Assembly: GCA_014816185.1 (NCBI GenBank)
Contig: GCA_014816185.1_4095.1
Source of the DNA: a phage
Reading direction: 5' to 3' (one strand)
Length of the DNA: 64,000 nucleotides
The position numbers and the translations under genes are program-made. Positions within the stretch are counted from its first letter, which is position 1, and every line of letters starts with the position of its first letter. Shown one piece after another: positions 21,438 to 34,727 of the stretch. Below the pieces are notes generated by a model. The model had not been told where the DNA came from, did no database searches, and saw only the letters and a program-made list of their open reading frames with translations.

Positions 21438-21629
21438 ATGTTGATTTATCAAAGTGATAATATTCGTGTTATGCAGCATCCCTACTTACAAATCTTTGAT
21501 GTGCAGCAGTATATGGAAGGTGATGACCCAAGAACCTATGGTCGTAAGTATGATTACTTCACTGTAAAGCAGTGTAAAAATATTAACGAAGTACGACAAT
21601 TAGTTCAAGAACTTCAAAACAAAGGTTGA
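21438..21629 (+). CDS. hypothetical small protein
   Basis: Start moved to ATG after AAGGA; stop codon sits inside the terminator hairpin. Confidence 0.45.
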   Translation: MLIYQSDNIRVMQHPYLQIFDVQQYMEGDDPRTYGRKYDYFTVKQCKNINEVRQLVQELQNKG

Positions 21630-21647
21630 CTTCGGTCAGCCTTTTTT
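21624..21647 (+). terminator. UUCG-tetraloop terminator with embedded -35
   Basis: GGTTGAC-TTCG-GTCAGCC plus T-run; TTGACT in the stem lies 18 nt upstream of TATAAT (21650-21655). Confidence 0.65.
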
Positions 21648-21683
21648 GTTATAATTCTCTTAATAAATTAGAGGATTTTAATT

Positions 21684-22124
21684 ATGTATGTATATCGTTT
21701 TGAACTTAAATTTAGTTACATTGAACCTAACTTAGATCCTGCACGAACTGTAGGTCCGTTTGCACGGTATTCAACCAGATACAGTACTAAAAATGGATTT
21801 GACCGTTTGCTTATGACTACACCTTCTCAATTCCAACCTGAACCAACTGAGGATGGGATCTATTCAATCAAAAGTGGATGGGTATTTGGCTGTCAAAGTT
21901 TGAAAGATTTGTTCAGATTCTTCACTATGGACTTGGGTAAATTGCATCGTGCTGGGTTTGCTATATCTGTATATGAAGTTCCAGACCACCATGTAGACAT
22001 TGGTCGTAATCAGGTTCAGTACTATTGCGGTAGTGCTAAATTAGTTCGTATCATGTCAGTTAAGGAAGCAAAGGATGAGTTCCGACAAAGTAAAAGAGAA
22101 ACACATGAGGTAATATATGGATAA
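21684..22124 (+). CDS. hypothetical protein
   Basis: SD AGAGGA. Confidence 0.6.
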   Translation: MYVYRFELKFSYIEPNLDPARTVGPFARYSTRYSTKNGFDRLLMTTPSQFQPEPTEDGIYSIKSGWVFGCQSLKDLFRFFTMDLGKLHRAGFAISVYEVPDHHVDIGRNQVQYYCGSAKLVRIMSVKEAKDEFRQSKRETHEVIYG

Positions 22125-22461
22125 AACTCAAATAGAATTAAAGAAATTTGTTTCATTCTATTTTCCTGATGACCCACGTAATTCACAAAAAGATATTGAA
22201 TATTATAATATCCTATCTAAACAGTTAATGAGAAAGTTTCAACAGTGTTTAACTATATTCAATACAGATGGAAGACGTAGATACCGAATCGTTTCAATGA
22301 ATGATGAAAACGCAAATTTCTTTGATTACGATGTAGTTTTTAGAGCATATAATGATGATCGTATAAAATTAAATTATGATCAAATTATACTTGACCTGAA
22401 TGTTATATGTGTTATAATCACTCACGTAGCCGAACTTAATGGTTTTAAAGAATGGTATTGA
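22117..22461 (+). CDS. hypothetical protein
   Basis: Overlaps upstream gene end. Confidence 0.55.
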   Translation: MDKTQIELKKFVSFYFPDDPRNSQKDIEYYNILSKQLMRKFQQCLTIFNTDGRRRYRIVSMNDENANFFDYDVVFRAYNDDRIKLNYDQIILDLNVICVIITHVAELNGFKEWY

Positions 22462-22475
22462 ATAGAGGATAACAT

Positions 22476-22742
22476 ATGAAGCTTAAATTACAATATAATG
22501 GATTTACTTTACGTAATGATACTGAATTTATTAATCGTTCTCCTGGTGCTGAACTGTTTTTACGAGAGATGAACATTCCTTTCATCATTACTACAGTGGG
22601 CGACCGTGAAGTTCTACAATATGCAGAGCATCCGATTATTGATGTTCCTTGGTACTCTGAGCATATGTACATGGATATGGCACGTCGCTACAACTGTAAG
22701 TTCGTAGTTGAAGGTGATAAAATTACAGTCGAATTTAAATAA
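22476..22742 (+). CDS. hypothetical protein
   Basis: SD AGAGGA. Confidence 0.55.
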   Translation: MKLKLQYNGFTLRNDTEFINRSPGAELFLREMNIPFIITTVGDREVLQYAEHPIIDVPWYSEHMYMDMARRYNCKFVVEGDKITVEFK

Positions 22743-22754
22743 GGTAAATTAAAA

Positions 22755-23048
22755 ATGATCAGTACTTCAGTTAATGAAAGCATCGTCGCTGACGTAGAAA
22801 TGGTTAAAGAATGTGCAGATGAAACTCTTCGTGATATGTACATTAATGATTTAATTACTGAATACGGTAGTCGTGGTGTACACGAATTTATTCGTTTAAG
22901 TGGAGAGTTGATGAAAAATCGAATTCGTATGAAGCTTAACGTACATCCAAAAGCATGGGCATTTACATTAAAATACGCAGAAGATATTGTGAATTTGCGT
23001 CGAACTGAAGTATATGAACGTTTGCACAATGGTATGTTAGATAAATGA
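22755..23048 (+). CDS. hypothetical protein
   Basis: SD AAGG. Confidence 0.55.
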   Translation: MISTSVNESIVADVEMVKECADETLRDMYINDLITEYGSRGVHEFIRLSGELMKNRIRMKLNVHPKAWAFTLKYAEDIVNLRRTEVYERLHNGMLDK

Positions 23049-23056
23049 TTGTAAAA

Positions 23057-23088
23057 AAGGAATTCTTAAATGAATTCCTTTTTGTTTA
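23057..23088 (+). terminator. rho-independent terminator
   Basis: AAGGAATTC-TTAAAT-GAATTCCTT plus TTTTGTTT. Confidence 0.55.
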
Positions 23089-23100
23089 TAAGGTATAGTA

Positions 23101-32547: not shown

Positions 32548-32585
32548 AGGAAAGGATTGACTTCGGTCACACAAAGGAACATAAC

Positions 32586-32780
32586 ATGTTATTAGTATAT
32601 TCAAAGCGTTTCTGGATTTCTTTCATTGTACTTTCGCTAATCGGCTTCGGTGTGAGTATAATCTTGTCGTGGGATGAATTGGGTACATGGTATTATGAAG
32701 TTCCGTGGTACATGAAGATAGCTCCTTGTTACGCGGCATTGTTCGTGTCCTTCCTTATTGTTGTCTTCAGTGAGGATTAG
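32586..32780 (+). CDS. small membrane protein
   Basis: SD AAGGAA; two hydrophobic segments. Confidence 0.5.
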   Translation: MLLVYSKRFWISFIVLSLIGFGVSIILSWDELGTWYYEVPWYMKIAPCYAALFVSFLIVVFSED

Positions 32781-32886
32781 TTGATGTAGTATGTGCTACA
32801 CCAAAGTATTTGGATATTTGAGATATAAACATTGACACCTGTTCTATCTTTCTGTATTATGTACATCACCAAATGAGGAATACAAC

Positions 32887-33246
32887 ATGGCATCTTTAAG
32901 TGAAATCGCAGAATACAACCCACTAACAATCTCAACAATTCAACGTACAAAAACTTTTTATTTCCGTCCTGCTGATGGATGGAAACGTGGAATGAATGGT
33001 GACTATCGAGTACTGGAAGATTCACTAATCGAGCGTATCAACTCTGAACTACAGAACTATGAAGGTGTTAAAGTTGTGCGTTCAACTTCTCGTTATTTTG
33101 AGTACTACATTGAGTCTTCAACTGTAAATGAAAACTCATCATTATCGGTGGACAACACTGATATTCTTCGTAATGCAGTTGGTATGTTATGCAACATTGC
33201 AGAAGAAATGGGATTAACTATTAGTACTATGAGTGAATTAGAATAA
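32887..33246 (+). CDS. hypothetical protein
   Basis: SD GAGGAA; TTGACA-type promoter upstream. Confidence 0.6.
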   Translation: MASLSEIAEYNPLTISTIQRTKTFYFRPADGWKRGMNGDYRVLEDSLIERINSELQNYEGVKVVRSTSRYFEYYIESSTVNENSSLSVDNTDILRNAVGMLCNIAEEMGLTISTMSELE

Positions 33247-33253
33247 CATAAAG

Positions 33254-33278
33254 GGTTGACTTCGGTCAGCCCTTTTTG
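33254..33278 (+). terminator. UUCG-tetraloop terminator with embedded -35
   Basis: GGGTTGAC-TTCG-GTCAGCCC plus T-run; TATAAT at 33280-33285. Confidence 0.65.
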
Positions 33279-33311
33279 CTATAATTATTTCATCAACACA
33301 AGAGGTAACAA

Positions 33312-33548
33312 ATGAAACTATCTTTTATACGATTAGCTGAATTCTTCGGTACTGATGTAATTACTTTACAACAAATTGCAGATAATACTTCATTAAGTAC
33401 ACAAGAAGTACTTGACTTAGATGTAATTCAGTGCGATAATACTTCCATCGATTTCAAAGAAGGTCTTGTCGAAAAAGATAAGATTAAAGCTAAGATTAAT
33501 GGTGCTGGACGGGTTCAGTACTGGAAAGGAGTATTAAGTAATGTTTGA
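33312..33548 (+). CDS. hypothetical protein
   Basis: SD AGAGG. Confidence 0.55.
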   Translation: MKLSFIRLAEFFGTDVITLQQIADNTSLSTQEVLDLDVIQCDNTSIDFKEGLVEKDKIKAKINGAGRVQYWKGVLSNV

Positions 33549-34659
33549 ACAGTATTATTTAAATGAAGATGGTGAAAAAGTTTATTTTCATGAAGAACTT
33601 GGTATGCGTTTTGAATGGATGAAGCCTGAAGATATAAAAAGGGTTTCAAAAGGACTCACTGCTAAGGATCATGTTGATGACATAGAAGCAAAATTAAAAA
33701 ACAAAGATATTGACAATATTACTATTATTGGATTATCAGTTAAATCATCACGTGAGTTTGGTAAAAACGGAAATAGTAATAACAATTTACTGATTATGTA
33801 TAATGGGGTATTGTATGATAATTATAAAATAACTGGTTTAAAAACAAAGCTTGAAAAAATAACAAACAATAAATTCAAGCCATCATTTACCTATACAGAT
33901 GAAAATTATTATTACTATGTAACCAAATTGGGTTCTCTCGAGGAAAGAGGATGCTATATATATGAAAATGAACATTTAGACAATGGGATAATGTCATATA
34001 TTAAATTCACATATTCCGATGGATTTACACAACCACGAAGAATAAATGATATAATTACAAAAACATCAATGAACGTTAGATATTTTATAACACCTGAAAT
34101 GCGTGAAACAATTGCTAACACACGCTGTAATGAACTAGGATATACATTAAAAGAAGTTTACAAGAAATCAAATGGTCGTTATTATGTAAAATATATATGT
34201 GATAAAGGACACGAGTGTAATCAAGACTATTATGCGTTTACTAGTAAACAAGCACAAAAGTGTGGATGCTGTTCCCAATTAGAAACACACTCATTTGGTC
34301 ATAATGATTGTAAAGAGTTTTTGAGAGGAATGTTTGTTACTGAAAGAGAGAAAACATTTCCTGATTTAAAAAATAAATCAAAACTTCCATATGATTTTTA
34401 TATTCGTGATATTAATACGTTATTTGAATATGATGGTAGTAATCACTTTGAAGAACGTGAATCAGGATGGGGAAACGGACTTATGAGGAAAAAACACGAT
34501 AAAATCAAAACAGAATACGCAATAAAAAATGGATATAACTTCATTCGTATTGCGTATTATGAAGACCATATTGGAGCATTGAAATCTTTCCTTAAACTCA
34601 TTGAAGAGAATCCAGGAAAGCAAATCGTGCAGATCTATGGTGAAGTACAAATTATCTAA
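33541..34659 (+). CDS. putative nuclease with Vsr/DUF559-like domain
   Basis: Cys cluster (CDKGHEC, CGCC) and C-terminal PYDFYI...LFEYDGSNHFE...KHDK...GYNFIRI resembling a PD-(D/E)xK Vsr-like core. Confidence 0.5.
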   Translation: MFEQYYLNEDGEKVYFHEELGMRFEWMKPEDIKRVSKGLTAKDHVDDIEAKLKNKDIDNITIIGLSVKSSREFGKNGNSNNNLLIMYNGVLYDNYKITGLKTKLEKITNNKFKPSFTYTDENYYYYVTKLGSLEERGCYIYENEHLDNGIMSYIKFTYSDGFTQPRRINDIITKTSMNVRYFITPEMRETIANTRCNELGYTLKEVYKKSNGRYYVKYICDKGHECNQDYYAFTSKQAQKCGCCSQLETHSFGHNDCKEFLRGMFVTEREKTFPDLKNKSKLPYDFYIRDINTLFEYDGSNHFEERESGWGNGLMRKKHDKIKTEYAIKNGYNFIRIAYYEDHIGALKSFLKLIEENPGKQIVQIYGEVQII

Positions 34660-34666
34660 AACAAAA

Positions 34667-34691
34667 GGGTTGACTTCGGTCAGCCCTTTTT
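34667..34691 (+). terminator. UUCG-tetraloop terminator with embedded -35
   Basis: GGGTTGAC-TTCG-GTCAGCCC plus T-run; TATAAT at 34694-34699. Confidence 0.65.
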
Positions 34692-34727
34692 GCTATAATC
34701 ATTTCATCAACTGAAGAGGGTAAAGAA

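Follow-up and report, generated by a model that had tools for sequence, protein, structure and literature searches.

The 64,000-nucleotide (64-kb) stretch of phage DNA analysed here (GenBank assembly GCA_014816185.1, contig GCA_014816185.1_4095.1; hereafter the window) belongs to a 121Q/PBECO4-like jumbo coliphage of the genus Asteriusvirus (99% identity to phage JP4) and carries a family of short repeats in which a hairpin with a UUCG loop overlaps a predicted sigma-70-like promoter. We consider it likely that these repeats are composite regulatory cassettes of the promoter-early stem-loop (PeSL) type, lying in a variable region of small open reading frames (ORFs). The initial annotation of this DNA had proposed that one element can both terminate the upstream transcript and promote the downstream one, and comparative sequence controls for each half support that proposal, as do published experiments on elements of the same class in other phages. 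That the copies also mark recombination junctions, and that they belong to the PeSL class, are both points beyond what it had claimed.

Copies were sought on both strands of the window with the pattern GTTGACTTCGGTCAGCC, allowing up to 3 mismatches, and dinucleotide-preserving shuffles served as control. Nine sites were found, all on the + strand (21625, 24868, 25051, 26393, 27478, 31973, 32556, 33255 and 34669), against 0.03 expected and a maximum of 1 in the shuffles. The co-oriented intergenic copies share the consensus GG(G)TTGAC-TTCG-GTCAGCC(C) over 21624-34699; seven are exact, one has a TAAG loop (24868) and one is decayed (32556). The looser expression TTGAC-N3-6-GTCA, run on both strands of the window, returned nothing beyond these nine. 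Thus, the eight copies first reported (seven exact plus the TAAG variant) are real, and the decayed ninth had been overlooked. Their position between genes was also described correctly: all nine occupy gaps of 36-69 nt between co-directional + strand ORFs, from the stop codon to the next Shine-Dalgarno/ATG, the distance from stop to start codon in a cassette being about 65 nt. The copies are direct repeats, one per 0.2-4.5 kb, and each follows the order A-rich tract, GG(G), TTGAC, TTCG, GTCAG, CC(C), T4-7, often G-C/T, and the -10 hexamer. They are as follows:

21624..21655, + strand: E1, hairpin GGTTGAC-TTCG-GTCAGCC at 21624-21641, -35 TTGACT at 21626-21631, T-run, TGt, -10 TATAAT at 21650-21655; next ATG at 21684.
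24866..24898, + strand: E2, loop variant, hairpin GGGTTGAC-TAAG-GTCAGCCC, -35 at 24869-24874, -10 TATCAT at 24893-24898; followed by a 114-nt ORF with its ATG at 24928.
25050..25080, + strand: E3, hairpin at 25050-25067, -35 at 25052-25057, 17-nt spacer, -10 TATACT at 25075-25080; the next gene is annotated as a virion structural protein.
26392..26423, + strand: E4, hairpin at 26392-26409, then T7; poor -10 TAAATA at 26418-26423, at 18 nt.
27477..27508, + strand: E5, hairpin at 27477-27494, -35 at 27479-27484, TGt, -10 TATGAT at 27503-27508; followed by a protein kinase gene, ATG at 27537.
31971..32003, + strand: E6, hairpin GGGTTGAC-TTCG-GTCAGCCC at 31971-31990, -35 at 31974-31979, TGc, -10 TATAAT at 31998-32003; followed by an endonuclease V gene, ATG at 32032.
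32556..32585, + strand: E7, decayed, ATTGACTTCGGTCACAC, ATTGAC-TTCG-GTCACAC, 4-bp stem with a folding energy (dG) of -3.2; no G/C clamp, T-run or -10.
33253..33285, + strand: E8, hairpin at 33253-33272, -35 at 33256-33261, TGc, -10 TATAAT at 33280-33285; next ATG at 33312.
34667..34699, + strand: E9, hairpin at 34667-34686, -35 at 34670-34675, TGc, -10 TATAAT at 34694-34699; next ATG at 34728.

The ORF upstream of E1 (21384-21629) ends on a TGA that is the TGA within the -35 TTGACT of this copy. E4 is probably a terminator only or a weak promoter. An ORF annotated in JP4 from window position 26378 (26378-26704) reads through the E4 hairpin, and the in-frame ATG at 26453, which has its own Shine-Dalgarno, is likely the true start of the gene after E4.

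The promoter half of the element shares sequence with the stem, in that the putative -35 TTGACT spans the 5' arm and runs one base into the loop. A promoter scan placed the perfect TATAAT hexamers named in the initial annotation (21650, 31998, 33280 and 34694) at 18 nt from TTGACT, as are TATCAT (24893) and TATGAT (27503). The claim of a TATAAT-like hexamer at this distance in at least seven copies thus stands for the hexamer, present in seven of the eight intact copies, and needs correction for the spacing at 25075, where TATACT lies at 17 nt. An extended -10 TG precedes five of the hexamers. For the statistical comparison, a -10 was counted when a hexamer 16-19 nt from TTGACT had A2 and T6 fixed and matched at no fewer than 4/6 positions; from any position of the window, such a hexamer is found at a rate of 15.5%, or 1.5% with TG. 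The exact window copies have it in 6/7 cases (p = 8.5e-5 vs background).

These rates allow one to weigh a reading in which the elements are terminators only, the TATAAT-like hexamers being a by-product of AT-rich DNA and the TTGAC of the stem a coincidence. Indeed, the window is only 34% GC and -10-like hexamers are common in it, E4 has no good -10, the same hairpin occupies stand-alone terminator positions in bacteria, and phage annotators have labelled it solely as a terminator. Yet 37 of 38 distinct viral contexts in IMG/VR carry a -10 (p = 4e-29 vs the 15.5% background) and 33 of the 38 carry the extended -10 TG, in contrast to just one -10 among 17 bacterial copies (viral vs bacterial, Fisher p = 9e-12). 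When the 14-nt core alone was followed through IMG/VR, a -10 was present, among the matches listed, in 49/53 contexts with the extended stem and a T-rich tail and in 10/100 contexts without the stem, which served as negative control; these stemless matches were rejected as true elements, being chance matches that fall mostly in coding DNA. The seventh base past the -10 is A in 45/51 copies and the sixth is C or T in 48/51, and this A with a preceding pyrimidine looks like the signature expected of a start site. A Shine-Dalgarno and ATG follow at a conserved distance, with a median of 29 nt from -10 to ATG. Given the coupling to a -10, the conserved pyrimidine-A and the fixed distance to the start codon, a role in termination alone is quite improbable.

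The leaders after E6 (32004-32031), E8 (33286-33311) and E9 (34700-34727) are conserved beyond what a promoter needs. A leader motif, (T)CATCGAAACGAGAGG or CATCAAC..., is common to Asteriusvirus copies, the Vibrio phages nt-1 and ValKK3 and Pectobacterium phage CB7; start-site context, RNA stability and translation are candidate roles for it.

On the RNA side, the clamp stem of the sense transcript folds at -9.4 to -12.8 kcal/mol, reaching -12 to -19 with its A/U extension (up to -18.8), formed between A-run and U-run, and is followed by 4-7 U. The element has the form of an intrinsic terminator, with a GC-rich hairpin and then a U-rich tract, 3' of a gene and on the transcribed strand. The antisense hairpin is about 5 kcal/mol weaker, because the U.G pair becomes C.A and the UUCG loop no longer contributes its bonus. 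When orthologous copies in seven relatives are compared, the wobble partner switches between G and A (U.G to U-A and back) with the stem intact and the loop varies (TTCG, TAAG, TACG, TTTG, TTTA, TTCT, TTCA), the stems being nearly invariant under a double constraint. Since a sigma-70 spacer needs no particular sequence, only pairing explains why the 3' arm and the GGG before the -35 are conserved. An automatic terminator scan flags E1 and E3 only; the other copies are passed over because the A/U extension of their stem consumes the T-run in scoring.

The exact hairpin with its T-run is also found at 17 bacterial genome loci (Acinetobacter, Exiguobacterium, Vibrio, Bacteroidetes and Clostridia assemblies), against about 0.03 occurrences expected by our own estimate from database size. 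All 17 copies follow an open frame of 83-675 codons on the same strand, 3-46 nt past its stop, a classic terminator position. In phages, the supplementary tables of the CBB paper list the hairpins as terminators Torf515/518/520 with a dG of -16.8 (PMC5259590), and the GenBank records of UE-S1, G17, Munch and GAP32 carry them as 'terminator' features. The likeness to cUUCGg intrinsic terminators extends to the GC-rich stem, the C-G-closed UUCG loop, the U-run and the upstream A-run. The bacterial copies of the hairpin have no -10 in 16/17 cases, whereas those of phages also carry TGnTATAAT, at a constant spacing, and the start-site signature.

The same features bear on the converse possibility, that the elements are promoters only and the inverted repeat acts at the DNA level, for instance as the site of a dimeric regulator such as the FNR/FixK box TTGAY-N4-RTCAA. 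The palindrome does overlap the -35, where a repressor could sit. The hairpin core differs by 3 mismatches from the E. coli FNR consensus TTGAT-N4-ATCAA. An FNR/CRP-family operator was rejected, TTGAC-N4-GTCAG being asymmetric in 48/53 copies and its flanks terminator-like. The sole literature match for the core sequence is TTGAC-TTCG-GTCAA, listed from sequence analysis among additional putative FnrL sites in Rhodobacter (PMC2908626), and it too speaks for an operator. Against this, the dominant form of the phage element breaks the DNA palindrome (GTCAG; 48 G vs 5 A) and keeps RNA pairing as U.G, and the conserved G/C clamp, upstream A-run and downstream T-run are features of a terminator and not of an operator. 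Moreover, the loop is freely variable, the same hairpin stands at bacterial gene ends without a promoter, and the dyad centre would fall at about -29.5, which is no activator position. We regard a purely promoter role as very improbable.

In the dual-function reading that we prefer, the RNA of an incoming polymerase would fold into the GC-clamped hairpin with its cUUCGg tetraloop and U-run, which would act as an intrinsic terminator or attenuator and leave a stable 3' end. In the DNA duplex, the 5' arm and the first loop base would be read as the -35 TTGACT, and the 3' arm and the T-run would fill the 17-18 bp spacer, ending in the extended -10 TG before the TATAAT-like -10. From these sequences we infer actual termination and actual initiation, and likewise the sigma factor used and the timing: a sigma-70-type RNA polymerase would start about 7 nt past the -10, at the conserved A, and would then transcribe a leader of about 22 nt with the Shine-Dalgarno. 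Each gene or small gene group might in this way be insulated and have its own promoter. Transcripts begun at an element would not contain the hairpin, and therefore the two functions would act on different RNAs. Finally, as the cassette recurs as a direct repeat, homologous recombination between copies could delete, insert or swap the intervening genes, comparable to PeSL-mediated modular shuffling.

The comparison of relatives is in line with such an exchange. Window 17000-39500 was aligned to seven relatives, with matches joined by a scored chain, and 19 distinct indel or replacement events were obtained, 10 of which have a junction inside a cassette (p = 6e-8 under uniform placement). Four of them are deletions from element to element, each leaving one chimeric copy (p = 3e-4):

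24895-25036: deletion E2-E3, in UE-S1 and ph0011.
26415-27460: deletion E4-E5, in UE-S1 and ph0011.
33316-34657: deletion E8-E9, in UE-S1.
32569-34665: deletion E7-E9, in ph0011; the decayed E7 is still a deletion junction.

Insertions of 0.4-3.8 kb are found at or directly beside copies in the relatives. At E6, phage ph0011 carries an additional 3.8 kb with a DNA adenine methylase gene, and the 3.4-kb cassette there is bounded on both sides by element copies. In vB_Ec-M-J, 0.7 kb with superinfection-immunity genes lies between E2 and E3. JP4 has an extra 0.6-kb gene at E8 and the half-element AAGGATTCACTTCC at the other junction, which places the breakpoint in or near the loop. The homing endonuclease gene of the window (33541-34659, 372 aa) ends 8 nt before the E9 hairpin and is absent or replaced in 121Q, PBECO4, SD-15_S21 and UE-S1; in 121Q (1.9 kb) and PBECO4 (1.4 kb) different DNA takes its place, and the right junction falls within E9. 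JP4, ph0011 and vB_Ec-M-J have an HNH gene inserted immediately ahead of E6.

Given these junctions inside elements and the endonuclease genes directly upstream of E6 and E9, the copies might be recombination or mobility modules, or homing-endonuclease targets, in the first place and transcription signals only secondarily. No recombinase or site-specific signature is tied to the elements, though, and the junction positions vary within the repeat, as homologous exchange predicts. A promoter or terminator role accounts for nearly every conserved base, and the occurrence of the same 20-nt hairpin with a -10 in Brochothrix phage A9 (see below) favors functional selection over one mobile sequence. 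A primary role in mobility is thus improbable; it is in any case compatible with the dual-function explanation rather than an alternative to it.

Elements of this kind have a precedent. PeSLs were defined in coliphages RB49/phi1 by Arbiol et al. 2010 (PMC2839356), in five subclasses according to the position of the stem-loop, one of which overlaps the -35. In these phages the stem-loop cuts read-through about as well as rrnB T1, whole PeSLs were found by experiment to be very strong promoters, and neighbouring PeSLs recombine to give mini-circles, with one crossover mapped to the loop (PMC2839356). The RB49/phi1 stem-loops have polyG/polyC stems and are most often placed over the -10 or in the spacer between the two promoter hexamers, unlike the Asteriusvirus element, whose one fixed design combines a UUCG loop with a -35 embedded in the 5' arm. 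According to Comeau, Arbiol & Krisch 2014, which extended PeSLs to PST/T4 and nt-1/KVP40, the elements are intergenic, clustered in hyperplastic regions and linked to indels, and those of nt-1 have the stem-loop consensus A3-4G3-loop-C3T3-4 and the -10 TAWWAT (PMC4122927); as far as that consensus goes, the Asteriusvirus copies match both. The 51-56 kb region of nt-1 singled out in the same source contains, in the genome sequence, AAAAGGGTTGC-TTCG-GCAGCCCTTTTTTGTTATTCT, GGGTTGCACTATGCAGCCCTTTTTAGTATTAT and GGGTTGCACTATGCAGCCCTTTTTAGTATTATATCTACATCGAAACGAGA, likened to published PeSLs at the level of the consensus. Like those of the window, these nt-1 elements have the -35 (TTGCTT/TTGCAC) in the 5' arm and a U.G wobble that occupies the corresponding place; moreover, the leader CATCGAAACGAGA is common to them and to several Asteriusvirus copies. 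In contrast to nt-1/KVP40, the host phage is an Asteriusvirus and not a member of the Straboviridae, the -35 is TTGACT vs TTGYVH, and the window copies are far more uniform, with 7 identical 17-mers. The exact 20-nt hairpin of the window is nevertheless present in Straboviridae, namely the KVP40-like phages VH7D and D481 and Aeromonas phage 65.2.

Judged by their sequence, the window elements appear to have every feature of the class. A stable stem-loop lies within or overlaps the promoter, with a predicted ability to terminate; the intergenic order is stop, AT-rich tract, element, Shine-Dalgarno and start; and all copies are clustered within 13 kb of the small-ORF run, as in a hyperplastic region. 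The sole point of departure would be taxonomic, the class having been defined in T4-like myoviruses and the window being Asteriusvirus, and this is a descriptive and not a mechanistic matter. Further promoter-like sites overlap different hairpins at 2352-2387, 28175-28203 and 60820-60848: at 2352 (TAGAAGTTGACTTTTTAACTTCTA) the -35 is within the stem and a T-run is lacking, at 28175 a hairpin occupies the spacer after TTGACA, and at 60820 the hairpin takes in CAGTACTGG. They look like other published PeSL subclasses.

The cassettes may also be compared with the lambdoid morons, ORFs with their own promoter and terminator that are gained and lost as cassettes (PMC1524935). Both are self-contained transcription units. 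Morons have a separate promoter and terminator, deviant GC content and no repeated conserved element, whereas in Asteriusvirus promoter and terminator are fused in one repeat common to neighbouring cassettes. We found no paper describing PeSL elements in Asteriusvirus or other RaK2-like phages. The words promoter and terminator are absent from the text of the RaK2 paper, the Sharanji and fEgEco12 papers discuss neither, and the CBB paper has the hairpins among its terminators and not among its 18 RpoD-like promoters (PMC5259590).

Several points weigh against reading the copies as dual-function cassettes. The literature on transcription in Asteriusvirus, RaK2, CBB and PA5oct yields no transcript-end data and no mention of a dual function. 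The 18-nt spacer exceeds the optimum by one. Not every copy can be dual, since E4 has no -10 and E7 is decayed. The clamp is followed by a short U-run of 4-6 U and then G, which may make termination incomplete. The phage encodes its own sigma-70-like factor, which makes the form of polymerase at these promoters, and hence their timing, uncertain. Lastly, indel junctions fall in or between elements, as they do in PeSLs, at only moderate significance when junctions are confined to the 56 gene boundaries (p = 0.03); the events being few (19) and drawn from related, non-independent genomes, the indel evidence is supportive rather than conclusive.

Beyond Asteriusvirus, a 64-nt cassette query gave matches in 183 phage records. 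These include the jumbo phages of Asteriusvirus, RaK2/K64-1, GAP32, CBB, Yen9-04, Serratia BF and Munch (RaK2-like), as well as Straboviridae of Vibrio and Aeromonas and Vequintavirinae of Pectobacterium, Cronobacter and Enterobacter. A 127-kb IMG/VR contig was identified as Brochothrix phage A9 (Herelleviridae), whose host is Gram-positive. It has two exact copies, each followed by TGTTATTAT, the identical GGGGTTGACTTCGGTCAGCCC hairpin being followed by TTTTGTTATTAT; its closest relatives in the search are large phages of Listeria, Staphylococcus and Enterococcus, and for the 3-kb query the best-covering record had 6 matching places. Spread of one mobile cassette among phages of Escherichia, Vibrio, Aeromonas and Pectobacterium had been considered, and the A9 copies weaken it. 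With the same hairpin in a phage of a Gram-positive host, repeated convergence is likelier than one mobile sequence and, within so small a design space, offers a simpler reading than horizontal transfer. The leader CATCGAAAC, common to the Gram-negative phages, is left unexplained by convergence.

The design space is small because the -35 fixes TTGAC and because the most stable tetraloop needs C-G closure (C-UUCG-G), which in turn makes the sixth base of the -35 a T, while G/C pairs are called for because the stem needs a clamp before the U-run. The sole free choice is the base opposite the first T, where U.G outnumbers U-A about 10:1. A G at this place would keep the RNA paired and turn the opposite-strand TTGAC into CTGAC, which might otherwise pair with the AT-rich tract upstream as a promoter in the antisense direction; 22/66 contexts have a -10-like hexamer on the antisense strand, vs a background of about 15%. 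In addition, termination at the U-run would free RNA polymerase right on the downstream promoter, which would favor immediate re-initiation by polymerase recycling. A stronger proposal, that the 20-nt hairpin GGGTTGAC-UUCG-GUCAGCCC is a convergent, near-minimal terminator-promoter fusion, employed by unrelated virulent phages of both Gram-negative and Gram-positive hosts, in which the wobble and the position of release are selected and not inherited, is one we put forward as speculative and rather unlikely.

As for the genomic setting, Asteriusvirus are jumbo myoviruses with genomes of about 350 kb (121Q, 348 kb), and the region is 97-99% identical to the Escherichia phages JP4, 121Q, PBECO4 and other members of the genus. 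The copies sit in a long one-direction run of small, mostly hypothetical + strand ORFs that also includes genes for a sigma-70-like factor (at about 12190-13155), a T7 gp0.7-like protein kinase, endonuclease V and homing endonucleases. The gene content of the copy-bearing segment differs among seven Asteriusvirus genomes, and in the 121Q genome (IMG/VR) every exact copy found falls in the corresponding single segment. In phage CBB, the matching segment has been proposed on bioinformatic grounds as an early host-takeover region (PMC5259590); by its gene content, the copy-bearing variable region of the window is presumably early as well.

Other features of the window were also noted. An Rfam scan of the whole window at gathering thresholds gave one tRNA and no family over the hairpin element; the tRNA-Thr (TGT) gene at 837-910 is the sole tRNA in the window. 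Directly after the sigma-factor gene lies a 451-nt ORF-free gap (13157-13607), which starts with a terminator-like hairpin, GGGTTGGC-TTAT-GCCAACC, then T7 and TGATATAAT; it has no match in Rfam and may be a non-coding RNA or a long leader. The palindromic octamer CAGTACTG, unrelated to the hairpin element, occurs 60 times in the 64 kb vs about 1 expected, in coding and intergenic DNA alike and most densely at 57636-63406, and it adjoins the -10 in several promoters (cagtacTGtATAAT at 15554, 30219, 58064 and 63000). It could be a site for a phage DNA-binding or DNA-modifying protein, or mark a second promoter class.

To conclude, the fused promoter-terminator design has already been described in T4-like phages, and what we report is a new example and not a new mechanism. 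Our analysis extends PeSL-type cassettes from T4-like phages to the jumbo phages of about 350 kb of the Asteriusvirus/RaK2-like group, where the hairpins are labelled only as terminators in the jumbo-phage records and the CBB supplement that we examined. Annotations of these phages could gain about eight transcription starts in the variable region of small ORFs, and some start-codon calls need correction, such as that of the ORF drawn over E4. The compact element of about 35 bp, a one-direction part combining a predicted terminator with a predicted strong extended -10 promoter, is possibly useful in phage or synthetic-biology engineering. Moreover, the elements would account for where close relatives differ by the gain or loss of gene cassettes.

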